Shown here one piece after another: positions 4,895 through 62,508 of a DNA stretch of 64,000 nucleotides. The DNA comes from an uncultured Bacilli bacterium (GTDB lineage: Bacteria; Bacillota_I; Bacilli_A; RF39; UBA660): positions 4,226 to 68,225 of the forward strand of contig CALVVT010000073.1 in the NCBI GenBank assembly GCA_944363935.1, written 5' to 3'. A program made the position numbers and the translations under genes. Position 1 is the stretch's first letter. Each line of letters starts with the position of its first letter. The notes under the pieces are model-generated. The model was not told the DNA's origin and searched no databases. It saw only the letters and a list, made by a program, of their open reading frames with translations.

Positions 4895-6937
4895 TTACTT
4901 TTTTAATATTTTTGGCCTTTCTAAACATAACATAGGTTGATTATACACTATCAATTGATGTTGAGCTCTAGTACATACAACATAATATAAATTTCTTTCT
5001 TCTTCTGTATAATAATTATCAGGTTTAGTATATGCTATAACGCCGTCAAATTCTAATCCTTTAGCTATATATGAAGGCAAAATAGAAATTTTGTTTTTTT
5101 CTATAGTATTTTTGACAAATATATTCTCTGAAGAATTAGCCACAAGTCTTTTGTGAAGATTAATTATCTCTTTATCGTCTTTTGTAATAATAGCTATTGT
5201 TTGCATACCATCATTTTTCATTTTCTTCAAATCGCTAATAATATCATTTATATCATTACTTTCTCTTTTTAAAACAGAAAAACCGTTTTTACCTCTAATT
5301 GAAGTGATATTATTAATATTTAAAATTTTACTAGCAAATTCAATTATCTCTGAACTAGATCTATATGTTTTATTTAATTCTATATAATTAGCTTCATTAT
5401 CAAAAATGATTTTTAATTCTTTTAATGATTTATATGTACTATCAGGATTTATAGATTGGTTAATATCACCTAAAATAGTGAAAAAAGCTTTAGGAAAAAT
5501 TTTCTTTAATATCCAAAATTGTAATGAAGAATAATCTTGAGCTTCATCAACAACCACGTGTTTAACTTCACTATTATATGGAAAATCATTTAACTGAAAA
5601 TAGATGTATATAATTCCCGTAATATCATCATAATATAATTTATTATTCTCTCTAATAATATTTTTCTCTTCTAAAAATCCTTTAAAAATATGAACAGGAT
5701 CAAGGTCAATATTTATTTTTTCATTTAAAATGTTTTTAATCTTTGTTTTATATTTCTTTAAAGGAACATTAATACTATGACAAATGTATTCAGCAATTTT
5801 TTCTATTCTTTCGGTAAAAGGTAATTTTTTATACTTAATCATTAATAAATCGTTTAATTCTAAATGATTAAAACAAAAGCCATTTAAAGTAATTCCTGTT
5901 TTAAAAATATGCTTTTTTAAATAACTATCAAGATATTTATCTAATTCTTCTTTTGTGTATAGGTTTTTTACTATACTCTCATTTCTTAATTCGTTATATT
6001 TACGTTTTAAAAAATCTGAAAATGTTTCTAACTTTTTATATTTTTTTAAATAAGTTTTTGCAATATCACTAAAAGTAGTATTTAAAACATTTTCTTCACC
6101 TAATTCAGGTAAAACGTCAGAAATATATTCTGAAAAAACATTATTAGGAGAAAATATTAAAATATTTTTAGAAGTTAAACCTTTTTCTTTATATAATAAA
6201 TAAGCAATGCGGTGTAGGGCAACAGAAGTTTTACCACTTCCCGCAATCCCTTGAACAATTAAATATTTATCTTTCGTATTCCTAATAATTTGATTTTGCT
6301 CTTTTTGAATTGTTGTAACAATATTTTTCATTTTATCACTTGAGTGAGAAGATAAAACTTCTTGCAACATATCATCATCAATATTAATATCATTTTCAAT
6401 AATTCTTTTTAATTTACCATCTTCGATTTTATATTGTCTTCTTAAGGTAATTTCACCATCTATCACTCCCATTGGAGCTTCATAACTAGCTTTTCCAACC
6501 GTATAATCGTAAAAAAGGCTAGAAATTGGTGCTCGCCAATCAAATATATAATTTTTATTTTCATTATTAAGACCATATAATCCTATATATACCTTAATTG
6601 TTTCATCCGGTAATTTAAAATCTATTCTTCCAAAATAAGCCTTATCTAATATTTTTTCATATTTAAATACTTTTTTAATTTTAGCATTAGTAATTTCTAC
6701 TTTAGCATCAGTGTCATTTAATAAATTACCATACTCAAGATCACTTAAGCTTTTACAATCATTCCATATATATTTTTTCAATTCGAAGATTTCCTGTTTT
6801 TCTTTGGTAATTTTAACATCAATTTCTTTAATAAATTTTTTTGCCACTTTTTTCACTTCAGTTAAATATTTATTTTCCTCTTTTAATGTATTATTATTAA
6901 CATTCATAGCATCACCTGTTAAATAATATTTTAACAC
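4895..6937 (-). CDS. helD: HelD-like UvrD/Rep superfamily helicase (DNA helicase IV / RNA polymerase recycling factor family)
   Basis: 680 aa. Walker A GIAGSGKTSVALHRIAYLL, DEAQD box (VVVDEAQDYS), UvrD-type C-terminal motifs and a HelD-like N-terminal domain. Confidence 0.75.
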   Translation of the reverse strand: MLKYYLTGDAMNVNNNTLKEENKYLTEVKKVAKKFIKEIDVKITKEKQEIFELKKYIWNDCKSLSDLEYGNLLNDTDAKVEITNAKIKKVFKYEKILDKAYFGRIDFKLPDETIKVYIGLYGLNNENKNYIFDWRAPISSLFYDYTVGKASYEAPMGVIDGEITLRRQYKIEDGKLKRIIENDINIDDDMLQEVLSSHSSDKMKNIVTTIQKEQNQIIRNTKDKYLIVQGIAGSGKTSVALHRIAYLLYKEKGLTSKNILIFSPNNVFSEYISDVLPELGEENVLNTTFSDIAKTYLKKYKKLETFSDFLKRKYNELRNESIVKNLYTKEELDKYLDSYLKKHIFKTGITLNGFCFNHLELNDLLMIKYKKLPFTERIEKIAEYICHSINVPLKKYKTKIKNILNEKINIDLDPVHIFKGFLEEKNIIRENNKLYYDDITGIIYIYFQLNDFPYNSEVKHVVVDEAQDYSSLQFWILKKIFPKAFFTILGDINQSINPDSTYKSLKELKIIFDNEANYIELNKTYRSSSEIIEFASKILNINNITSIRGKNGFSVLKRESNDINDIISDLKKMKNDGMQTIAIITKDDKEIINLHKRLVANSSENIFVKNTIEKNKISILPSYIAKGLEFDGVIAYTKPDNYYTEEERNLYYVVCTRAQHQLIVYNQPMLCLERPKILKK

Positions 6938-19854: not shown

Positions 19855-20250
19855 CTATGATAACTGGTATGGATTATTTTGACTCCCATTACCTCCAGTT
19901 ATTTTAACCGCTTCATTATTACTATTAGTAATACCAATAGTTTCTAATTTCGCATCAAATGTTCCTTTATTTTCGACAATAATACTATATTCTACATAAT
20001 CTCCTTTTTCATATAAATTAGCTTCTAAACTTGCTGATAAATCATTATAAGTGTTTTTAACATTTTCTCCCGTTCCATTTGTATCAGTTACGTCGGCACT
20101 TATTATTTTAATATCCCAAGTACTACTAATATCAGTTGTCCCCGTAATATTAATACTTGTTTTAAAAGCCGCATAGCCTATCCCCATTAAACATAAAATG
20201 CATATTAAAATAAATATAACAATTTTATTTCTTCTTTTTTCCCTATACAT
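19855..20250 (-). CDS. Small secreted protein of the GIGYAAF family (TasA/SipW-cognate-like signal; C-terminal GNGSQNNPYQLS)
   Basis: 131 aa, MYREKRRNKIV..LMGIGYAAFKTSINITGTTDISSTWDIKI. Paralogous to 38317-38664, 32982-35899 and 60137-62094. Confidence 0.75.
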   Translation of the reverse strand: MYREKRRNKIVIFILICILCLMGIGYAAFKTSINITGTTDISSTWDIKIISADVTDTNGTGENVKNTYNDLSASLEANLYEKGDYVEYSIIVENKGTFDAKLETIGITNSNNEAVKITGGNGSQNNPYQLS

Positions 20251-20391: not shown

Positions 20392-20580
20392 ATGATAAAA
20401 CAATATAGAGAAAAATGTGGGTTTACTCAAGAACAATTAGCTGAAATTTTAGAAATAAGTTGGAGACAACTTCAAAGAATAGAAAAAGATGAAACTAAAA
20501 CTAAAATAAGCACATTAAAAAAAATAATTAAAGTTTTAAATATACCCGACGAAGAAATAATTAAATTAATGAAAAAATAG
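20392..20580 (+). CDS. XRE-family HTH transcriptional regulator (62 aa)
   Basis: GFTQEQLAEILEISWRQLQRIE helix-turn-helix. Divergently transcribed from the family gene 19855-20250. Confidence 0.75.
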   Translation: MIKQYREKCGFTQEQLAEILEISWRQLQRIEKDETKTKISTLKKIIKVLNIPDEEIIKLMKK

Positions 20581-20602: not shown

Positions 20603-22294
20603 TTAATTTCTATTAGTATGTATTTTTTTTACTTTATTATTTAAAACTTTTAACATTAAATCAAAATCAATAATTTCTAAATTAGTAATTGGGTGAAATT
20701 CCCTATTTCTAATTATTCTTTTCTTATAATACCTCATATGTCTAGAATCTTTTATAGTTTTTCTAGTTTTTAATATTCTTAAATTTCTAATTGTAAGTAC
20801 TACATTTCGTAAATCCTGTGGTTTAGGTATAACTTTCACCTTTGGTTCTTTTATTTTCGGTGCTTCTGTTACTATTGGTTTTACTTCTGGTACTTTTTCT
20901 ATCACTTTAGGTGCTTCTGTTACCACTGGTTTTACTTCCGGCACTTTTTCCATCACTTTAGGTGCTTCTGTTACCACTGGTTTTGCTTCTGGTACTTTTT
21001 CTATTACTTTAGGTGCTTCTGTTACCACTGGTTTTACTTCCGGCACTTTTTCTATTACTTTAGGTGCTTCAGTTACCATTGGTTTTGCTTCTGGTACTTT
21101 TTCTATCACTTTAGGTGCTTCTGTTACCACTGGTTTTACTTCCGGCACTTTTTCTATCACTTTAGGTGCTTCTGTTACCACTGGTTTTACTTCTGGTACT
21201 TTTTCTATCACTTTAGGTGATTCAGTTACTACTGGCTTTATTTTAGCTTTAGAATCTGATTTGATATTAGGAATTTCAGTAAACACTGATGGCTTTGGTA
21301 CTTCTTTAATAACTTCTTTCTTTAAAGTTTCCATAGGTTTCATTAAATCTGGTTTACTATTAAAAATATTATCTTTTTTAACTGGTAACTTTTCTTTAGA
21401 ATTTACTATATTTTTATTAATAAACGTTTTTTTGTTATCTTTTACTTCTGATTTTAACTCTTCTTTAACTTCATTAATTTCCAAAGTTTCTGGCTCTTTA
21501 ACTAAAGAAACTGAACTCTTTTCTTCTAATAAAGGAACAGCAGTTTCTTTAGGATTAATGTCTAAAATTTCAGGTTTTTCTTTTTTAGAAAGTTCGTCTA
21601 AACTTATTAATTTAGCTTCTAAAACAACATTTTTGTTAGCTTTTTTTTCGTTTATTTCTTCATTAATAATATCTTCATTACTAATTTTTTCATCTTTTAA
21701 AATATTGTCTTTTTCGTCAAGCATTTCAGTAATTCTATTAATAATTGTAATAACACATACAGAAACAATCTGTAAAAGAAAAACTCCCATTAATAACTGC
21801 ATTAAAGTTAAAACATCACTATTAGAATATAACGCATTTTCTCTATAAATATTAATGTCATTAGACTGTATAGTTACTAAAACTAAACAAAATAAAGTTT
21901 GAACAATAGCAAAACCTGTAAAATTAATTATTCTAACTACTTTAACTAATTTTTTATAAAAAACTGTAATTAAACAAATAATAGCTGATAAAATAATAAC
22001 AACAAATAAGGTAATAAAATTAGGAAAATAAAGGGTCATAAAAAAGCCATTTACAACATTATCAAATAAATCAAATAAAGTACTACCACCGATAAATAAA
22101 ACAACGGCAATAACGATAATATAAATAAGTAAAATTATTTTTTTTACATCTTTTTCCTTTTTAGTGGTATCTCTTTCTAAAAACATAACAACCATAGGTA
22201 CCATTAAAATAATTAAGAAAAAAGGATGGGCGATTATATTATCAAAAAGTATTTGTAATTTTTCTAGTAATGAAAGCTCTTCCAATTTTACCAC
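20603..22294 (-). CDS. Polytopic membrane protein with a C-terminal Pro/Lys/Glu-rich 17-aa tandem-repeat region
   Basis: 563 aa with N-terminal multi-TM segments. The motif KPVVTEAPKVIEKVPEV repeats about 8 times, encoded by 51-bp tandem DNA repeats. Confidence 0.6.
   Translation of the reverse strand: MVKLEELSLLEKLQILFDNIIAHPFFLIILMVPMVVMFLERDTTKKEKDVKKIILLIYIIVIAVVLFIGGSTLFDLFDNVVNGFFMTLYFPNFITLFVVIILSAIICLITVFYKKLVKVVRIINFTGFAIVQTLFCLVLVTIQSNDINIYRENALYSNSDVLTLMQLLMGVFLLQIVSVCVITIINRITEMLDEKDNILKDEKISNEDIINEEINEKKANKNVVLEAKLISLDELSKKEKPEILDINPKETAVPLLEEKSSVSLVKEPETLEINEVKEELKSEVKDNKKTFINKNIVNSKEKLPVKKDNIFNSKPDLMKPMETLKKEVIKEVPKPSVFTEIPNIKSDSKAKIKPVVTESPKVIEKVPEVKPVVTEAPKVIEKVPEVKPVVTEAPKVIEKVPEAKPMVTEAPKVIEKVPEVKPVVTEAPKVIEKVPEAKPVVTEAPKVMEKVPEVKPVVTEAPKVIEKVPEVKPIVTEAPKIKEPKVKVIPKPQDLRNVVLTIRNLRILKTRKTIKDSRHMRYYKKRIIRNREFHPITNLEIIDFDLMLKVLNNKVKKIHTNRN
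20858..21238. repeat. 51-bp tandem repeat, about 7.5 copies, inside the coding sequence
   Basis: Unit GGTGCTTCTGTTACCACTGGTTTTACTTCCGGCACTTTTTCTATCACTTTA with minor variants. Confidence 0.85.
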
Positions 22295-24370: not shown

Positions 24371-24973
24371 TTAATATTTAATTATATACTTACCATATTT
24401 ATCATTTTTAGATGTTCCGGTCCAAACAATTAAATCTTCCACTATTAATTTGTTTAATAAATTAATTGCTGAAGTTTTTTTACGATTAATTATTTCAGCA
24501 ACTTCTGCTTCAAAATTTCTTTCGCCTTTTTCATATTCCAAACTTCTCACTTGTATGGAATTAAGTTTTATCGAAGAATCACCTTGTCTTAAATAAACTT
24601 CATCTTTATTATTACGAACAATAAAATTCATAACAGGATTTATATGAAATAAAATAATAGTATCTTTTTCATTTTTATTATTTAAAACATCAATTAATTC
24701 TATATTATAATTAGGTGTTGGTTTTAAATAATTAGTAACAACTTTTTGACATTCATTTAATTTATTAATACCATAAATATTAAAGCCTTCAATAGTACCG
24801 TCGTCTTTAATTCCAATTGCAATCACACCACCATTAGCATTTGCAAAAGAAGCAATTTCATTAGCTAATTCTTGATTACTAATTTTAGCACTTTTGCGAT
24901 CAAAATATAAATTTTCTTTAGTATTTGTTAAATAATCAATTGTAATACTAGGATCAAATTTTGAAATAGACAT
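24371..24973 (-). CDS. AlbA_2/Schlafen-like putative DNA-binding domain protein
   Basis: 200 aa; LYFDRKSAKIS...IASFANANGGVIAIGIKDDGTIEG matches the AlbA_2 (divergent AAA-4) domain signature. Confidence 0.6.
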   Translation of the reverse strand: MSISKFDPSITIDYLTNTKENLYFDRKSAKISNQELANEIASFANANGGVIAIGIKDDGTIEGFNIYGINKLNECQKVVTNYLKPTPNYNIELIDVLNNKNEKDTIILFHINPVMNFIVRNNKDEVYLRQGDSSIKLNSIQVRSLEYEKGERNFEAEVAEIINRKKTSAINLLNKLIVEDLIVWTGTSKNDKYGKYIIKY

Positions 24974-30443: not shown

Positions 30444-31550
30444 TTAAAATTTATTTTTATATAAAAAATATTTAGTATTAGCGACCATAAAATAACCATT
30501 ATAACTAGCTAATACTTGTTTATAATTAGATTTTTTTTGTTTTTTCAGTCGTTTTAATTTTCTTTTCACTCGTTTTTTAGTTTGATTATTAAGTAAAATT
30601 AATAATTTTTTTTCTTTAAGTTTAAACTTATATCCTAAAAAATTTACCCCTTTATTTAAATCATATATTTGGGTTTTTTTATTTAAAGATAACCCTAATT
30701 TTTGAACCTTTCGATTAATCTCTACTAAACACTCTTTTAAAAATTCTTTATTATGATGAATTAAAATAAAGTCATCCATATATCTTATATAATATTTAAT
30801 TTGTAATTTTTCCTTAATAAAATGGTCTAGTTCATTTAAATAATAAATGGCTAAAATTTGACTCGTTTCATTACCAATTGGCAACCCTTTACCTTTTTTA
30901 TATCTAGGCAAATAATTTAGTTCTTGAAACTTACAAAAAATATCTGGGATGCTTTTCTGTCTTAATTTTTCTTTTTCTTTAGCTATTAAATTATCAATCT
31001 GATTATTAATATATTTAGCGTCAGTACTGTCGATAATATTTTTTAAAACATCAATTATTTCAAAATCAGGAATATCTTTAATTAATTTTTGTAATAAAAT
31101 TTCATGATTAATATTATAAAAATACTTACTAATATCACATTTTAAAACGTATATTTGATCATAATTTTGTTTTAATTTATTAATATATTTTTTTATATAA
31201 TAAATACCTGCTTTAGTACCTTTACCACTTCTAGTAGCAACATTTGTTTCCACTAATTTAGGAATTAAATAAGGAATTAAAACATATTTACTGATCAAAT
31301 GATTAACTATTTTATCTAAAATTCTTTCACTCATAACTATTCGGTATTTCGGTTCAGATATTAAAAATAAACTATATTGTCCGTGAGTATAAGTTCGAGA
31401 CTTTAATAAGTACAAAATTTTAGTTATATTAGAAGAAAAAGCCAGTTCAAATCTAACTAACTTTTGCTGATGACAGGTATTTAAACGAATTTTATAATAA
31501 ATTTTCAGTATTTTATCTATTGAAAGAAGATTATCATAAGTTATTTTCAT
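30444..31550 (-). CDS. Diversity-generating retroelement reverse transcriptase
   Basis: 368 aa RT domain. Motifs: EPKYRIVMSERILDKIVNHLI, the DGR-specific GLPIGNETSQILAIYYLNELD (I/LGxxxSQ in place of the group II QG) and YIRYMDDFIL (YxDD). There is no maturase or endonuclease domain. Confidence 0.9.
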   Translation of the reverse strand: MKITYDNLLSIDKILKIYYKIRLNTCHQQKLVRFELAFSSNITKILYLLKSRTYTHGQYSLFLISEPKYRIVMSERILDKIVNHLISKYVLIPYLIPKLVETNVATRSGKGTKAGIYYIKKYINKLKQNYDQIYVLKCDISKYFYNINHEILLQKLIKDIPDFEIIDVLKNIIDSTDAKYINNQIDNLIAKEKEKLRQKSIPDIFCKFQELNYLPRYKKGKGLPIGNETSQILAIYYLNELDHFIKEKLQIKYYIRYMDDFILIHHNKEFLKECLVEINRKVQKLGLSLNKKTQIYDLNKGVNFLGYKFKLKEKKLLILLNNQTKKRVKRKLKRLKKQKKSNYKQVLASYNGYFMVANTKYFLYKNKF

Positions 31551-32182
31551 TAACTTTTAATACTTTCTAAAACATATTTATCGTTAATTTTTTTATAATT
31601 ATAAGTTTTTAAAGTTCCATTATCTAATATGTTATTTAAATTATCTTTATTATATTCACCGATATCATTATTATCTAAATTATAAACATTATTATCTTTT
31701 ATATAAGCAATTTTTACATTTAATTCTAATTTATTATTATCATTAGTATAACCATATAATTTAGACACATATTTATTTTCACAAGAATACTTTTCTCTAG
31801 TAATAACGTCATTATCTAAATTATAAATATAACCATTATAAACATAATTTTGAACATTTGGCGCTTTAACATCACCAAGGATTTTTTTAGTACTTGTTTG
31901 ATAATCTTTTAAAGAAATTTTATCTTTTAATAAATTATCCTTATTCATTTGACCAAAAATTAAATCTAAAAGACTTTTATCTTCTAATTTATCGACATTT
32001 CCATCATTAATAACCGAGCATTCATTAACAGCAATCGCATCATACAAATCTTCAGCAACCTCGTGTTTTACTAAATTGCTAAAAGTTTGCGCTAGTTCTT
32101 TATTTTTTACTATCAATATTAATACTGTAATTAACACTATAATAATCAATAAAATAATAATTATTACTTTTTTATTCTTCAT
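31550..32182 (-). CDS. Membrane-anchored hypothetical protein encoded between avd and the RT
   Basis: 210 aa with an N-terminal TM and an Asn/Asp/Tyr-rich ectodomain. It is translationally coupled to avd (11-nt overlap) and to the RT (shared nucleotide). Confidence 0.5.
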   Translation of the reverse strand: MKNKKVIIIILLIIIVLITVLILIVKNKELAQTFSNLVKHEVAEDLYDAIAVNECSVINDGNVDKLEDKSLLDLIFGQMNKDNLLKDKISLKDYQTSTKKILGDVKAPNVQNYVYNGYIYNLDNDVITREKYSCENKYVSKLYGYTNDNNKLELNVKIAYIKDNNVYNLDNNDIGEYNKDNLNNILDNGTLKTYNYKKINDKYVLESIKS

Positions 32183-32525
32183 TACTAGTCTCCCTCTTTC
32201 TTAAACCATTAATCATTTTTCTTATTTCAATTAAAAATCTACCAATAACTGTAAACTGGTGATAACTTATTATTTTTTTATCCAATGAAACTTTTGTATA
32301 AAAGTCAAGCATCGAAAGTTCTACTGATAAATCTTTTAAATATTTATCTTTAATTCGTATACTAGTATTAATGTTATAAGCAAAAATGTTTTTAATTAAA
32401 GAATAACATGTTTTTTCAATATTGTTTTTTAATACAATTTCTTTTTTAGGATAATTAATAAGTAATTTATTAATATAATTAATTGTTTTATAAGAATTAT
32501 TTAAAATTTTAAAATTATAATTCAT
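32172..32525 (-). CDS. avd: Accessory variability determinant (Avd-like four-helix-bundle protein)
   Basis: About 118 aa starting at MNYNFKILNN with RBS GGAGA (the ORF track extends it to 32558). The size, basic composition and position between TR and RT match DGR Avd. Confidence 0.65.
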   Translation of the reverse strand: MNYNFKILNNSYKTINYINKLLINYPKKEIVLKNNIEKTCYSLIKNIFAYNINTSIRIKDKYLKDLSVELSMLDFYTKVSLDKKIISYHQFTVIGRFLIEIRKMINGLRKRETSNEE

Positions 32526-32767
32526 TTTTTCTCCTTCAATAAGTGTGGCTGGAGACAAAAAGTCTCCACCACTAATATAGCGATAGTTATATAAATACTT
32601 TAATAGTCATATAACGTCTATATTATCTTTTTAGGCTTTAATCCAAGGAATTAACCTTGTTTCCAATCTAAATTAGATTATTGCTTTCGCAACTACTTCC
32701 TCTGGTTATGAGCCGTAGCCAAATAACATCACGGTTCATTAGTAAATAATCACTAATTGTAGTAGGA

Positions 32768-32877
32768 AATTGGGCGGACGCCGTTGCTATTCCAAGTATT
32801 AGTGTTAGTGAGCTCGCCCGTGGCAGTCACGTACATCTCATTAGCATTGAACCAATTGTTGAAGTTCGACGGCGACA
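32768..32877 (-). repeat. DGR template repeat (TR)
   Basis: 110 bp, 95/110 identical to the VR. On the coding (minus) strand it encodes SPSNFNNWFNANEMYVTATGELTNTNTWNSNGVRPI, rich in AAC/AAT codons, and ends in GGCGTCCGCCCAATT. Confidence 0.92.
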
Positions 32878-32981: not shown

Positions 32982-35899
32982 CTACGAAACAACAAATGGG
33001 TCTTCAATTGTTCCGCTTCCAGTTACTGTTAGATTTTCAGAATTTAGATTGATAACTGGGCGGACGCCGCGGCTATCCCAAGTACCAGTGAAAGTGAGCT
33101 CGCCCGTGGCAGCCACGTACAGCTCATAAGCATAGAACCAATTGCTGAAGAACGACGGCGACATGGTCCAGTATGTAGTTCCCGTATATAAATAATATAA
33201 AGAATTTACTGATCCATTTATTCCACCAGCCATATTTACTTCGTCAGCAGTGATTAAACCAACTGAATAATTTAATTTCTTATTTCCTCTATTTACACTA
33301 AAACTATCGTTTTCTTCACACATTAAGGTTGGTCCAAGTTTTCCTTGAGAGGCCCAATTCAAAAATCTTTCATATCCATATATTGTTGGATTTATTCCAT
33401 ACCCTAAATTATTATAAGTTCCACTATTTTTAGAAGATTTATTTCGGTTATTACAGAATACTGCATCTTTACTTATTTTATCATTAACACTTGTTAAATT
33501 ACTTTGATACCAACTATCTAGATAATCTTTCATAGTACTATCATTTACATTACTATGTGCTTCTTCCAAACTTGTCGTTCCATAAGCTTTTGCTTTTACT
33601 GTCATTGAAGTACTACTATTATATTTTGTTGTATAAAATAGTCTTTGACATGAAGCTGAAGCCGAAGTACTAAAACAGGTATAATATCCTACTTCATTAT
33701 TTGAAAGGGTTCCTGTATGTAAATCTCCTGATAATTTATAACCTCTACTGTTTTTATCAAAGGTATAACTTGTTCCAAAATAATATTTCGCACTGCTTGA
33801 AAGACTTGTATAAACAAACGTCATATCACCACTATCTGTTTCCACAAAATTATTAGCGTTTCCATACATATATCCTACATAAGTATTGTCATTGGTATAT
33901 GAATTAAAAGCACTTGTTCCTACCTGTCTATTACTACTTGCTTCACCATTGGTATAAGGTGTGGTTCCATCATATATCATTCTTATACTTCCATCACCAT
34001 TTACTCTGATTATTCTCCAGTACATATTATTAAATTTTACATAGTTTCCCCCAACACTTCCGCGGTAATAATATGTCGTTCCATCATTATCACTTCCAGC
34101 ATACATTCCAACTCCAGTTGTATCATAACTAGCGACTGACTGGGTATAATCATATTTTGTCATATTATAAGTTATCTGACCAGTTGAACTATTTGTACTT
34201 GTCGTTACATTAGTTATTTTGTATAAAGTCGTACAAGAAACATTTGTAGTTAAACAAGTATAATAATCTCCACTACTATAATCTATGCTTGATGGATCTT
34301 TTAAACTATAGCCTGTTAAAGTATATATTCCTGTTGTTTTATTAAAAGTATAGCCTGTTCCAATATTATCATAATATATATGACTATGAACCGTTGTATT
34401 ACTTGCATGAACTTCATTATATGAAGCACTTGGACTTGTAACCATAAAGTTTGGATTACCTTTACCTTCTATCTCTTGTTTAGCTAGTTCTATATTACTT
34501 TCTTTAGCTTCACTGGCTATTATACAATCTCCAAAATTATCTATATCATTATGTTCACAAAATGCTGCATGTCTTATTGTTGTTGTTTTGGCCATCGTTT
34601 CTGATATATTTCCAGCTTTATCTTTTACATATACTGTTACTAAATAATCGCCTTCTTCAAGAGTAGTAAATGTATAGTTTGGATTACTAGTTTCAACATA
34701 ACTTTTACCCCCATCTTTACTATAATAGTATGTAGATACTCCGCTTTCTTTATCATTTGCATCTACTTCAATAGTCATTGTGTCATCGTCTGGAGTTACT
34801 ATTACATTTGTTACTTCTGGAATATTACTATCAACATTATAATTATCTGTACATTTAATTTCTTCATTTCCTACTACATCTACGGCTTTTACACAGACTT
34901 TTTGACTATCTTTATTACTAGTTATTTGAACCATCCCTTTATTATCTGTAAGTTCTAGTTCTTTATCTGGAGTACAATCACTATTTCCTATACAGTATAA
35001 AGCTTTAGCTACTTTATCATTATCACTAACTTCAACATTTATATCAAGTCCCTTATACCAATTATTTTCACCTTTTATATTATCTCCCATTACTAATAAT
35101 ACTTTTGGTTTCGTTTTATCTAAAGTTTTAAATTTTGTACTAGAAAATACTACTTCTCCTTCTTCGTTTTCAGCTTTAACATAAAGCATATATTCTGTAT
35201 TTGGTTTAAGATTATGAATAGTATAACTATTATTATTTGTCTCATACCATTTATCATTATCTAATGAAAAATAGTATTTAATAGCATTTTCGGCGGTTAT
35301 TTTACTTGTTACACTTGTTTCATTTGGATTTACTTCTAAATCACTTATTTTAAATCCTTCTACTTCTATACTATCTGCATCTGAAAAATTAGTACTATTT
35401 CCTTTTTGAACATACTCTAATACTGTAGAAAAACTAAACTTTGTTTGTTCAGGTTGACTAGTTATATCTTCATTATATTTTAAAATAACATTAAACTTTT
35501 TTTCTGTTTCCGATAACAATTCTTCTTTAGCGGTTATCCCTTCTACCGAATATATAAGAACGTTTTGTTCTGGCGCATTTATTTTAATACTATCTAAAAC
35601 AGCATCTAAAGTTCCTTTATTTTCAACCGTTATTTCATAAGTTATACTATCTCCTGGCGCATAAAAGTTAGCTGTCATATTAGCCGTTAAATCATTCCAA
35701 TTTGGCTCTGTAGCATTTTCAGCATTGCCTTCGGTCTTTATAGTTTCAACATTTGTTATTCTAATATCCCAAATACTTGTTATATTACTGGTACCGTTAA
35801 TATTTAGTTTACTACTAAAAGCGGCATACCCTATTCCCATTAACATTAATAAACAGCATAAACCTAATATAACTACGTTGTTCTTTTTTCGTCTATGCA
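32982..35899 (-). CDS. DGR target: large secreted surface protein of the GIGYAAF family with repeated beta-rich modules and a C-terminal VR-bearing (C-type-lectin-like) domain
   Basis: About 972 aa from MHRRKKNNVVILGL (RBS AAGGAGG; the ORF track starts 34 nt upstream at 35933). N-terminus LMGIGYAAFSSKLNINGTSNITSIWDIRITN. The VR is 24-60 residues from the C-terminus. Confidence 0.85.
33055..33164 (-). repeat. DGR variable repeat (VR) at the 3' end of the target gene
   Basis: Encodes SPSFFSNWFYAYELYVAATGELTFTGTWDSRGVRPV. The 15 substitutions relative to the TR are all at TR coding-strand adenines (for example AAC to TTC, AGC or CGC, and AAT to TAT, GGT or GAT). It ends in the GC-rich GGCGTCCGCCCAGTT. 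Confidence 0.92.
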
Positions 35900-36002: not shown

Positions 36003-36212
36003 ATGATAAAAATAAATATCGAAGAACTTCTTAAAGAAAATGGAAAAAGTAAATATTGGCTTCGCCAAAAGATGAACATAACTTCCAGAAACCTTAATAA
36101 AATTATTAGAGGTGAAACTAATTCTATTTCTTTCAAATATATTGAAGAATTTTGTTACTACTTAAACTGTACTCCAGGAGATTTAATAACTATTGAAAAA
36201 GACAGGCCCTAG
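36003..36212 (+). CDS. XRE/Cro-type HTH regulator (69 aa), divergent from the DGR target gene
   Basis: KYWLRQKMNITSRNLNKIIRGET helix-turn-helix. Confidence 0.7.
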   Translation: MIKINIEELLKENGKSKYWLRQKMNITSRNLNKIIRGETNSISFKYIEEFCYYLNCTPGDLITIEKDRP

Positions 36213-38316: not shown

Positions 38317-38664
38317 TCAATTTTGTAATTGATAAGCATTATTTTCTGAACCATCACCTGATATAATTTGTACTTCTGGAGATAATGTTACTGTATATAA
38401 GGCATAATCTCCGGGACTTACTAAATTAGTACTAAATGATGCTGTAAGTCCATTCTCATTATCATAACTTGGTTCTACTGCATTAGTTGCTTTTCCATGT
38501 AAGTTACTTTCGATATTAGTTATTCTTATATCCCAGTTACTACTTATATTACTAGTACCAGTAATATTAAGCATACTACTAAAAGCGGCATACCCTATCC
38601 CCATTAATAATAATATTGAACATAATCCTAGTATAATTAAATTATTTTTCTTTCTCCTATTCAT
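38317..38664 (-). CDS. Small secreted GIGYAAF-family protein (about 115 aa)
   Basis: MNRRKKNNLIILGLCSILLLMGIGYAAFSSMLNITGTSNISSNWDIRITNIE...SGDGSENNAYQLQN. The start was chosen at the M with an RBS (the track start 38727 is an extension). Confidence 0.75.
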   Translation of the reverse strand: MNRRKKNNLIILGLCSILLLMGIGYAAFSSMLNITGTSNISSNWDIRITNIESNLHGKATNAVEPSYDNENGLTASFSTNLVSPGDYALYTVTLSPEVQIISGDGSENNAYQLQN

Positions 38665-41635: not shown

Positions 41636-41690
41636 AATTCGGCTTACGTTCGGCTTATTTTCGGCTTAAATTCGGCTTAAATTCGGCTTA
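41636..41690. repeat. Five tandem copies of a ~10-11 bp unit (minus strand TAAGCCGAAtt) immediately upstream of the small membrane gene RBS
   Basis: Forward sequence is aaattcggcttacgttcggcttattttcggcttaaattcggcttaaattcggcttaag. Confidence 0.85.
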
Positions 41691-42779
41691 AGTATGTTCT
41701 AATAAATATTTTATATATTTTTCAGTCAAAATATAATCAACATTTCTTTTCTGATTCATGTCATAACGAGTTAAAAATTCTTTTTGCATCCATTTCTTTA
41801 ACCAATTATTTGCTGTATCCAAACTTATTTTAAAATGAGAAGCTATATCTTTAGCTTTTATTTTTCCATGATTAATTATAAAATTGGCAACCCATCTTTC
41901 TCTTTTATCTAAAGTATTAAATAAATTTACTTCATTTTGACTTTTTTCATAGATATTTTTAATTCTTTTTTCTACAATATCAAAAGTTTTTGACATTACA
42001 GAAACAAAATACTCAAGCCAAGCAGTAATATCAGCTTTATTTCTTCCAAAATAATAGTTATGATGCAATCCCATTTGTAAAGAATTATAATATTCTTCAA
42101 TATTTTTGTCATAATATTCTTCTAAAACATAAAAGCCTCTTAAATCATAATCATATAACTTCAAAATATAATTAGCAAGTAATCTTGCACATCTCCCATT
42201 TCCATCCCAAAAAGGATGAATAGTTAAAAACTTATAAGCAAAAATACCTGCTTTAATTGGTACTGGAATATCATTACTTTCATTAAGCTCAATTATCATA
42301 TCCTTTATTAAAGAACTAACGTCAGAAGCTTCTGGTGGTAAGTATACTATCTTTTTAGTCAATGAATCTTCCACAACATTTTGACCATCTCGAAAATTAT
42401 TTTTATATGTTATTTTTTTACCGATAACTAAATTATGTAATTTTAAAATTAAATCTTCAGTAATAGGCTCTTTTTTGTCACTTAAATCATTTAAATACAT
42501 CAAAGCATTATAATAATTTCTTACCTCTAAAACATTTCTTTCATGTGATTTTATATTGTTTTCAATAACTTCCTTAACTTCATTTAAATTTAAACGATTG
42601 CCTTCTATTTTTGTAGAATAATGAACTCTTTTTACAATAGTTTCTTTTTTTATTTCTTCTTCAATAGATAACGGTAATTTCAATAATTTAGTTATTTCTT
42701 TAACATTATTTATCTTTATTAAATCATTAACTAACTTATTAGTATAATGCCATTTTATATCCATTTTTTCACTAACCAT
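41688..42779 (-). CDS. fic: Fic/DOC-family protein (putative AMPylase) with a C-terminal wHTH
   Basis: 363 aa with the Fic motif HPFWDGNGRCARL. It sits directly downstream of the leuS-type T-box leader. Confidence 0.85.
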   Translation of the reverse strand: MVSEKMDIKWHYTNKLVNDLIKINNVKEITKLLKLPLSIEEEIKKETIVKRVHYSTKIEGNRLNLNEVKEVIENNIKSHERNVLEVRNYYNALMYLNDLSDKKEPITEDLILKLHNLVIGKKITYKNNFRDGQNVVEDSLTKKIVYLPPEASDVSSLIKDMIIELNESNDIPVPIKAGIFAYKFLTIHPFWDGNGRCARLLANYILKLYDYDLRGFYVLEEYYDKNIEEYYNSLQMGLHHNYYFGRNKADITAWLEYFVSVMSKTFDIVEKRIKNIYEKSQNEVNLFNTLDKRERWVANFIINHGKIKAKDIASHFKISLDTANNWLKKWMQKEFLTRYDMNQKRNVDYILTEKYIKYLLEHT

Positions 42780-60072: not shown

Positions 60073-60136
60073 CTTATCACTTCCTTATTAAATTCTACCA
60101 TTATAAGAGAAAAAAATCTAGCATTATTACTAGATT

Positions 60137-62094
60137 TTATAGACTTAACTGGTACGGACTTGAACTTGAACCATTCCCCGAAGTTATTTTGACATTTGGG
60201 GATAAGGTTGCTACAGGGCGGACGCCGAATGAAAAACCGCTACTTCCAGTAGTTGACATATTTCCTTTAGAAGTTATATAAATTGCAAAGGACACATATG
60301 GGTTTATTGTCCAATAATTTGTGCTATTAAATAAATAGTTTGTTAAATTACATTCATCATAATTATTACGTAACAAATTATTATTACTACATTTTTCAGT
60401 ATTAGAATTTGCCCGTAAATAATCACTAAAATTAATTAGTCCTACCTTTCCTTCCCATATATCACTATTTTCAATTGGAATAATTTCTTTTAATTCATAA
60501 TTAAACATCCCATTTTCATTTCCTATACCATAACCGTAATTAATTATTTGGTTTTGTGATAACAAGGTTAATTCATTACTATAATATTCTGTATTTAAAT
60601 ATGTATTTAATGTTGCTGTCCTCCATCTATCAGAATCCGCTTCATTCCATACCATATTATTAATAATATCTTTTTTTACTATTTTTATAGTGTTATCATT
60701 TGTATTAATTCGCACTATTCTCCATAGCTCATCATTAAAATTAATATAATTGTTTGGATTAGTTCCCCGATATGTATACACATTCTCTTCATATGAGTCT
60801 TTATATAACCCATCTCCACTTGTCACTAGTTGGAGACTATCAATAAATTCTTCCACTGTTTGTGGTATTGTTATATTATATGATGCACTTTCCATATTAA
60901 CACCATCACTTACTCTGGCTACTAATGTACCACTTTCCGTAAATTCTACTTCTTGATTTTGAGTTGCTGCAGTCCATGTACCATTATCTTTTTGATACTC
61001 GTATGTTAATCCTTCTCCTTCTGGATATGTTATAGTAACAGTTTTTCCATTATCTGTTTCTTCTTCACTAAAGGTCGGTACATTTAATTCTTTCGTACTT
61101 ACATTATATTCTTCACTTTCTACTTGTAGGTTATCTCTATTGGTTACTCTTACTTTTATTTTATGACTTGTATTTTGAGTAAGTCCTGTAAAGGTATATG
61201 TATTACTATCACCTGTTATATATTCCTCATTATCTATTTTATATTCGTATTTTACTATTTCTCCATCTTCTTCTATAGCTGTAGTTACAACGGTTATAGA
61301 ACTCGTTGTACTACTGGTACTTACATTATTTATAACTGGAGGCGTTGTATCTATTTTTCTAAATATCGCATAAAGTGTTACATTATTACTTGGCATACTT
61401 AAACTTTCTAAACCTACTGTTGCTCCTTTATCCGTATTCCATCCCATAAATTCATAGCCTGCTTTAGTTGCTGTATATTCTAAATTAACATTACTTCCTT
61501 CGGCTACATAATCATTTATAGCATTTGTGCTTTCTCCGCCATTAGTACTATAATCATAAGTTACATAATAATCATTAGCTGGTAAAGGATTATCACTATC
61601 TTGAGCTACATCTATACTTATATCTAAATCGACACTTATATTTTCTTCGATACTTGTTACATCACTATTAAATTCTACTTTAACTTGTAACTCTTTTGTT
61701 TCTTTACCTTTGATTACATCTCCTTTAGTTAGTCCTGATAAAGTAAAGGTTATATACTTATTTTCTTTATAATAAGTATTTATTTTCTCTATTCTCGCAT
61801 CTACACTTCCTCTATTTTCTATAGTTACTGTATATAATGCATAATCTCCAGGTCTTTTTAAACCAGTACTAAATGATGCATATAGTCCATTAGTATTATC
61901 ATAACTTGGTTCTTCGATATCTTCAGCTCCATGTAACTCACTTTCTATATTAGTTATTCTAACATCCCAGGTACTTGTTATATTACTTGTTCCTGTTATA
62001 TTTAATTTACTACTAAAGGCTGCATATCCTATTCCCATTAATACTAATATAGAACATAGCCCTACTATAATTAAATTATTTTTTTAGTTCGCAT
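60137..62094 (-). pseudogene. GIGYAAF-family large surface protein; paralog of the DGR target. The signal-peptide region is frameshifted at an A7 tract, a candidate phase-variable switch
   Basis: ATG (rc 62092-62094) with RBS GGAGGA gives MRTKKII then a stop. One extra A in the A7 run (fwd T7, 62079-62085) would give MRTKKNNLIIVGLCSILVLMGIGYAAF..., in frame with the 633-aa ORF. The C-terminus has FGVRPV and GNGSSSSPYQLSL. Confidence 0.7.
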
Positions 62095-62134
62095 AAAGCG
62101 TCCTCCTACTTCCTATTATATTTTTTTATCTTAT

Positions 62135-62449
62135 TTGAATTACATCACATGCGTGGACTATTTGTCCATATATAAAAATAAGATTTTTCGAGATAATAAA
62201 GATAGGTGGTGGCGGATTATGAAACATGATGATAATTATTATTATAATATTATTAGAAATAATATTAAAAAATATAGAAAAAAAGCTAATTTAACTCAAC
62301 AAGAACTAGCTGATAAAGCTGGTATAACTATGAACTATATTGCTAAAATAGAAAGTCAAAAAATGCAAAGAGGTTTTAGCATTGTTATACTTGGTAGAAT
62401 AGCTGATGCTTTAAATATAGATATTAAATTATTATTTGAAAATAATTAA
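62135..62449 (+). CDS. XRE-family HTH regulator (104 aa), divergent from the frameshifted family gene
   Basis: LTQQELADKAGITMNYIAKIE helix-turn-helix. Confidence 0.75.
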   Translation: MNYITCVDYLSIYKNKIFRDNKDRWWRIMKHDDNYYYNIIRNNIKKYRKKANLTQQELADKAGITMNYIAKIESQKMQRGFSIVILGRIADALNIDIKLLFENN

Positions 62450-62508
62450 AATAGGATAGCCTTTAAACTATCCTATTTTTATATATAATTATAAAAAAAA
62501 GAAGAAAA

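Follow-up and report, generated by a model that had tools for sequence, protein, structure and literature searches.

The stretch of DNA analysed here, referred to as the window, comprises 64,000 nucleotides (nt) from an uncultured Bacilli bacterium (GTDB lineage RF39, UBA660; contig CALVVT010000073.1) and includes the gene p633, detected mechanically as an open reading frame (ORF) of 633 amino acids (aa). The gene belongs to a family with four loci in the window (p633, p983, p131 and p136), of which p983 is the sole full-length member, and is predicted to encode a secreted or surface-displayed multi-domain protein. Its reading frame is broken close to the start, at a run of seven A residues (A7), which the original prediction put forward as a candidate slipped-strand contingency switch with A8 as the proper length. 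The features of the locus are the following (L018, L019 and L024 are contigs of the same species, described below):

62101-62107, minus strand: Shine-Dalgarno sequence AGGAGGA of p633, with a 6-nt spacer to the ATG; conserved in L018, L019 and L024
62092-62094, minus strand: authentic start codon ATG of p633, aligned with the starts of the intact alleles and homologs
62079-62085, minus strand (T7 on the forward strand): A7 run, site of the 1-nt loss, where the window has AAAAAAAT and intact alleles have AAAAAGAAT
62071-62094, minus strand: remnant seven-codon frame, translated as MRTKKII, with a premature TAA (62073-62071)
60137-62083, minus strand: body of p633 (-1 frame), which opens behind the in-frame TAA at 62086-62084 and runs to the stop 60139-60137
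60137-62038, minus strand: mechanical 633-aa ORF from an internal ATG at 62038 (MGIGYAAF...), with no Shine-Dalgarno sequence before it
60110-60136, minus strand: putative terminator of p633, recognised by eye as a hairpin AATCTAG-TAATAATG-CTAGATT with a T run behind it, immediately past the stop

Read directly on the minus strand, the leader of p633 runs ATG CGA ACT AAA AAA ATA ATT TAA (62094-62071), i.e. MRTKKII and a stop, and the A run in the window sequence is exactly seven long. A frameshift within the signal-peptide codons, downstream of an ATG preceded by a Shine-Dalgarno sequence, had been predicted and is confirmed by this reading. The -1 frame, open from 62083, encodes KNNLIIVGLCSILVL ahead of the ATG at 62038, and a tblastn search with the homolog P0002 aligns to 62083..60140. 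Adding one base to the A7 run gives, again as predicted, a p633 ORF of 652 codons with one terminal stop, in frame with the 633-aa ORF and starting with MRTKKNNLIIVGLCSILVLMGIGYAAFSS. This restored leader agrees with those of the three window paralogs and of dozens of database homologs, and on this comparison p633 is judged to have a genuine frameshifted leader, chance resemblance being excluded. The leader shows, as read from the sequence, an n-region with KK, a hydrophobic core and an AAF motif. The frameshift sits in the A-rich codons of the n-region and leaves a stump of less than 10 aa, as in inlA-type null alleles. A product initiated at the internal ATG 62038 would lack the signal peptide's n-region and the greater part of its h-region; this 633-aa form is the one deposited as protein P0001.

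Around the leader, a promoter scan was uninformative in the A+T-rich window (18 sites against 18.4 expected), and a search for inverted repeats in the intergenic region upstream of p633 gave nothing notable and identified no operator. The terminator hairpin, having too few G-C pairs, was not flagged by the consensus scan.

Strains of the same species were located through the neighbouring trigger factor gene (tig), using eight protein clusters with 99-100% identity. The flanks of the conspecific contigs are 98.5-99.3% identical to the window, and the tig flanks of L018, L019 and L024 are 98.7-98.8% identical to it. The interval between tig and priA, which in the window holds p633 and a divergent helix-turn-helix (HTH) gene and was compared over 60154-62474, is polymorphic, with at least four haplotypes within one species:

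62219-62449, plus strand: XRE-type HTH gene of the window, 76 aa, divergent from p633 (HTH_3, E 1.8e-13)
haplotype (a), L017, L021 and L023: module of HTH and family gene (window 62414..60154) deleted
haplotype (b), L018, L019 and L024: family gene 91% identical to that of the window, without the HTH gene
haplotype (c), L020: a different HTH gene, at which the contig ends
haplotype (d), the window: HTH gene and p633

The deletion in haplotype (a) spared a 3'-terminal piece of the HTH gene of about 36 nt and the final 17 nt of the family gene, with a filler of 23 nt between them. Haplotype (b) has an intact leader, ATG (or GTG) CAA ACT AAA AAG AAT AAT TTA ATT ATA GTA GGG...; when the window is aligned with L018, the missing G is the only difference over the stretch from ACT to the codons AAA TTA / AAA CTA, where a T/C difference occurs. 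The closest leader from another genome, that of L008 (protein P0014, MRTKKNNLIIVG), reads ATG CGA ACT AAA AAG AAT. Thus L018, L019, L024 and L008 all carry A5-G-A2 (AAAAAGAAT) at the tract and none is uninterrupted, and within the species of the window G-interrupted in-frame alleles (L018, L019 and L024) coexist with the A7 allele. Since the leaders of haplotype (b) and of L008 read AAA AAG AAT, the in-frame (ON) state that occurs naturally is A5-G-A2 and not the A8 that had been proposed, which was found in none of them. The window allele and L018 differ by a synonymous divergence (dS) of about 0.30, compared with about 1% divergence in the flanks, which indicates that the tig-priA allele was replaced through recombination.

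Protein databases gave a consistent picture. The truncated 633-aa form P0001 is the only database protein with about 100% identity, and it forms a cluster of one, from one 85-kb NCBI contig; neither the cluster look-up nor the family search of the protein collection returned a full-length (652-aa) version of the window allele. The next protein relatives are about 70% identical overall and lie in other genomic contexts, and the closest protein homologs (P0002, P0011 and P0014) were for this reason rejected as same-locus orthologs. A look-up of encoding contigs for the window ORF, P0001 and P0012 found nothing on record, a GTDB scan with the N-terminal 379 aa found only relatives with at most 81% identity and not the window's own species, and a JGI metagenome scan with a degenerate MGIGYAAFS pattern found one distant locus, in which the leader is intact.

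The window-type haplotype was retrieved by an exact look-up of its 76-aa HTH protein, which returned five ENA contigs. L025, L028 and L029, which come from three different samples, reach 269 nt beyond the HTH start and so across the leader, and they are base-for-base identical to window positions 61950-62225, including the A7 run. Over their full length they are 99.9-100% identical to the window, with 0-1 single-nucleotide polymorphisms per 0.6-2 kb. A7 is therefore found in four of four assemblies of this haplotype. The strain comparison that had been suggested as a check for A7/A8 heterogeneity revealed no length variation at the consensus level, the other alleles at the same locus being A5-G-A2, and no A8, A6 or A9 tract at the p633 leader was seen among the available contigs and proteins, which are a small sample. 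A second A7 run (62121-62127, minus strand), followed at once by a TATAAT-like hexamer, lies about 27 nt upstream of the p633 start. The window, L025, L028 and L029 and the divergent alleles L018, L019 and L024 all share this run unchanged, so there is no sign of promoter-spacer variation.

We compared 14 other distinct family leaders (p983, p136, p131, L001, L002, L007, L008, L009, L010, L011, L013, L014, L018 and L019), counting identical ones once (L011 = L012; L014 = L015 = L016; L018 = L024). All 14 are in frame, and their longest A run is A6, usually broken by a G. As the original prediction had stated, the runs of the window paralogs are shorter or interrupted: p983 has CGAAAAAAGAAC (A6 followed by G), p131 has GGGAAAAAAGAAG (A6) and p136 has AGAAAGAAAAAT (A3-G-A5). 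An uninterrupted mutable repeat as the conserved ON state was found neither among the same-locus alleles, nor in L008, nor in the 14 leaders. In addition, an A7 run is commonplace in this window and nothing special. With 27.3% G+C, the 64 kb contain 119 A/T runs of at least 7, and AAAAAAA, with 150 matches against 246 +/- 22 expected from dinucleotide-preserving shuffles of the 64 kb, is depleted rather than enriched. The other A/T runs of 7-9 that were inspected lie in or beside ORFs of at least 120 aa, which they leave unbroken.

A census of database proteins had suggested recurrent loss of the leader, as the roughly 120 family hits include 16 whose first residue is exactly the internal Met. 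This was rejected as an artefact of gene calling, because the DNA of P0028, P0065 and P0085 shows intact in-frame leaders with TTG or ATG starts. The start site is systematically miscalled in the family, and many deposited proteins begin with MGIGYAAF or MVVGYAAF (loci L011-L016).

The lesion itself, the agreement of four assemblies on it, the intact alleles with their interrupting G and the deletions of the locus in other strains together make it likely, in our view, that the A7 of p633 marks a loss-of-function allele, recent and fixed in the lineage, of a dispensable accessory gene for a secreted or surface protein. The ancestral leader at this locus would have read ATG CGA ACT AAA AAG AAT AAT TTA, from which one base was then lost to give AAAAAAAT, either by direct deletion of the G or by a synonymous G-to-A change to a transient A8 that slipped to A7. 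Both routes are compatible with the data, and the order of the mutational steps is a reconstruction. Translation from the ATG 62094, the only start preceded by a Shine-Dalgarno sequence, ends after seven codons. Presumably no exported p633 protein is made, because the downstream ATG has no Shine-Dalgarno sequence and its product would have neither the n-region nor most of the h-region. The A7 run would be revertible by +1 replication slippage to A8, which restores the same protein, but such events are expected to be rare, roughly 1e-7 per cell by analogy with inlA, as for ordinary homopolymer mutation. The homopolymer appears in this way to be the product of the lesion and not a dedicated, evolved high-frequency switch.

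The family gene appears to be dispensable and the family to be decaying, because the module is deleted in L017, L021 and L023 and because p131 and p136 are reduced to stumps. In p131 (19855-20250, minus strand), residues 1-118 of homologs of about 1000 aa (94-96% identity) are fused in frame to their last 17 residues, whereas p136 (38317-38664, minus strand) joins residues 1-94 of P0095 (98% identity) in frame to the last 22 residues of homologs of about 700 aa. Half of the window's four family loci are thus in-frame deletion stumps, with their head-to-tail junctions at short shared motifs (..VKIT|GGNGS.. and ..YTVT|LSPEV..).

With respect to its age, p633 has no second inactivating lesion downstream of the frameshift and its 633 codons are open. 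When the window allele is set against L018, the ratio of nonsynonymous to synonymous substitution rates (dN/dS) comes to 0.21 over 423 codons, and when the changes were polarised with three outgroups the window branch had 20 synonymous and 11 nonsynonymous substitutions, compared with 21 and 12 on the branch of the intact L018. Since the frame is open and the branch counts are equal, either the lesion is young relative to the divergence of the alleles or selection still acts on the gene. Of the two alternatives that the original prediction had itself listed, a pseudogene or null allele fits best, though a second lesion is lacking; the other, a sequencing error, did not stand.

Several points weigh against a fixed loss of function. 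The 633-codon frame is wholly open with no relaxed constraint, and an open, constrained frame is equally expected of a reversible OFF state or of a gene expressed through slippage. Assemblies give the majority base only, and a minority subpopulation with A8 would be invisible in them. The four A7 assemblies are near-identical strains, sequenced independently but probably not independent evolutionary lineages. Another family protein, P0012, is also deposited from the internal Met. Finally, if mismatch repair is absent in this organism, A7/A8 switching could be fast, as it is in Mycoplasma hominis vaa.

The closest precedent for p633 is the 5' poly(A) frameshift of Listeria monocytogenes inlA, in which A7 is in frame, A6 leads to an 8-aa product and A2GA4 is interrupted and in frame (Orsi, Bowen and Wiedmann 2010, PMC2831843). 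The two genes encode surface proteins of Gram-positive bacteria; in each, a Lys-rich n-region is coded by an A run, a 1-nt change leaves a stump of 7-8 aa, G-interrupted in-frame alleles occur in the same species, and the protein has Listeria-type repeat domains (Flg_new / InlB B-repeat in p633). In inlA, A6 changes to A7 at a frequency of about 5.5e-7 and A7 to A6 at about 3.9e-8, with deletions in the interrupted A2GA4 below 3e-10 (PMC2831843). By analogy, such low reversion is what would be expected of p633. The two differ in that the uninterrupted in-frame A7 allele of inlA is common and its frameshift arose at least twice (PMC2831843), whereas for p633 no uninterrupted in-frame (A8) allele was seen and the broken allele comes from one near-clonal lineage only. 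p633 likewise resembles young pseudogenes of strain-variable surface loci, with a single lesion, presence/absence polymorphism and sister copies reduced to stumps, but differs from decaying pseudogenes, as it has no second lesion and no relaxed constraint yet.

Reversible phase variation, in which A7 would be the OFF state of a slipped-strand switch and cells with A8 (or A5) would be frequent and selected when the protein is useful, seems to us unlikely, although it survives better than the other alternatives. The tract does lie at the 5' end, within signal-peptide codons, and a +1 change gives the exact protein, but the intact alleles are interrupted by a G, the natural ON state has no mutable homopolymer, and A8 was seen nowhere while all four assemblies have A7. 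The p633 ORF is intact and its constraint unrelaxed, and fluctuating selection is plausible for a variable multi-copy surface family with one member diversified by a diversity-generating retroelement (DGR); irreversible deletions have, however, also inactivated this locus and family. inlA (PMC2831843) and the vaa adhesin of Mycoplasma hominis (as summarised in PMC524362) are precedents for such a tract. Here, no family leader has a run beyond A6, and A7 is depleted rather than enriched among the many A/T runs of the window. The contingency locus put forward in the original prediction is therefore not supported by the invariant A7, by the family leaders or by the A-run background.

The vaa poly-A is reported to be ON with A8 and OFF with A7 or A9 and to switch at 1e-3 to 1e-4 (PMC524362). 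The inlA tract rates lie far above the point-mutation rate and, set against these values, orders of magnitude below them (PMC2831843, PMC524362). Like p633, vaa has a poly-A at the 5' end of the coding sequence for a variable surface protein, with the same A7/A8 arithmetic. In vaa, however, the normal ON tract is uninterrupted and switching was observed in culture, whereas in p633 the ON alleles are interrupted and the tract length is invariant, and the p633 host, unlike a mycoplasma, encodes genes for cell-wall synthesis (PBP5-type carboxypeptidase, M23 peptidases). We regard it as improbable, a little more so than phase variation in general, that this lineage replaced a stable leader, interrupted by a G, with a slippery homopolymer and now alternates between A7 and A8 at appreciable frequency, perhaps in the absence of mismatch repair. 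If it did, a single member of a DGR-associated family of surface proteins would have its expression bet-hedged, a first case, in an uncultured gut Bacilli lineage, of a DGR target family that is also subject to phase variation at a homopolymer.

It is more doubtful still that full-length protein is made without mutation, either through addition of an A by the polymerase or through a -1 slip of the ribosome on AAA AAA, so that some product starting with MRTKKNNL... would appear. The body does lie in the -1 frame, and a back-slip of the P-site tRNA-Lys on AAA AAA A, or a transcript with A8, would yield the family sequence, but the register, T AAA AAA, departs from the canonical X XXY YYZ, and no downstream stimulatory structure was found, the fold of 106 nt (z-score -0.33) being no better than shuffles. 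Transcriptional insertions in A/T runs grow exponentially with run length (PMC5574713), and seven A residues are short, as the length relevant for slippage is typically nine (PMC1088944). The frameshift is also not conserved, all relatives being in frame, and is thus not programmed. None of the hallmarks of programmed -1 frameshifting or transcriptional slippage (register, a run of about nine or more, a stimulator and conservation) was found at p633.

A homopolymer error in sequencing or assembly, with a true genome carrying A8 or AAAAAGAAT and an intact gene, is close to refuted and the least probable explanation: single-base homopolymer errors are a known artefact and the window is from a draft contig, but three further assemblies from three different samples have the identical A7, many other inspected A/T runs of 7-9 leave their long ORFs unbroken, and the agreement of four independent assemblies rules out a one-off error.

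As to the protein itself, p633 consists of a Lys-rich hydrophobic leader, a beta-rich N-terminal domain, a Listeria-Bacteroides repeat, Fn3/Ig-like domains and an alpha/beta C-terminal domain. Its profile matches are Flg_new (E 1.9e-10) and Flg_new_2, with weak matches to fn3 and Big_7, and a sequence search of the PDB returned the InlB B-repeat only. The AlphaFold model has a pLDDT of 86, and in a Foldseek search with the full-length model Fn3 tandems dominate, leaving the N- and C-terminal domains unassigned. Many p633 homologs carry DUF6273, for which p633 itself has no match at E <=0.01. A SipW/TasA-type signal peptide was considered for the leader and was not confirmed by any NCBIfam match at E <=0.01.

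The module of an HTH gene and a surface-protein gene recurs in the window at p983 (HTH at 36003..36212, plus strand) and at p131 (HTH at 20392..20580, plus strand). The same pairing is found for most homologs from other genomes (loci L008-L012), at unrelated chromosomal sites. The intact paralog p983, 983 aa long, is the target of a complete DGR next to it, with the following components:

32768-32877, minus strand: template repeat (TR), 110 nt
33054-33163, minus strand: variable repeat (VR) at the 3' end of p983, residues 924-960
32172-32558, minus strand: Avd gene (bAvd 48.3 bits, above the Pfam cut-off; DivGenRetAVD, E 8.7e-14)
31550-32182, minus strand: 210-aa ORF with a hydrophobic N-terminus, in the DGR
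30444-31550, minus strand: DGR reverse transcriptase

All 15 differences between the VR of p983 and the TR lie at TR adenines (15/15), and with its TR/VR pair, Avd and reverse transcriptase p983 resembles the DGR variable proteins with C-type-lectin-like (DUF6273-type) C-terminal domains (PMC10743442). p633 does not: its C-terminal region matches the TR solely through the 11-mer GGCGTCCGCCC, and it was not found to be a DGR target. This G+C-rich 11-mer, which encodes GVRP, occurs at only three sites in the window, namely at the 3' ends of the TR (32772-32782) and of the VR (33058-33068) and at the equivalent spot in p633 (60216-60226). It is also present in two homologs (L001 at 5951 and L010 at 4890). 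p633 may be a former DGR target or may share an element similar to that for initiation of mutagenic homing (IMH). The p633 frameshift is unconnected with DGR mutagenesis.

Elsewhere in the window, three matches to defence profiles and one repeat-containing protein were observed:

41688-42779, minus strand: Fic-domain protein, SoFic model, E 1.7e-45
24371-24973, minus strand: 200-aa protein matching part of a pAgo-associated model, E 5.6e-11
4895-6937, minus strand: UvrD-like helicase with GajB/RTasHel-type similarity
20603-22294, minus strand: 563-aa membrane protein with 16-residue repeats in tandem (PVVTEAPKVIEKVPEVK type)

On its own p633 carries little weight, being another single-base knockout at Lys codons of a signal peptide, as has been described before for Listeria inlA. 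It does caution that a frameshift located in a homopolymer need not originate from a homopolymer switch, or act as one, and that the database proteins starting at an internal Met were mostly gene-calling artefacts. In our view the wider context is more interesting, namely a multi-copy, HTH-linked family of secreted proteins that, in a single species of uncultured gut Bacilli, is undergoing reshuffling and deletion and, in the case of one paralog, hypermutation by a DGR.

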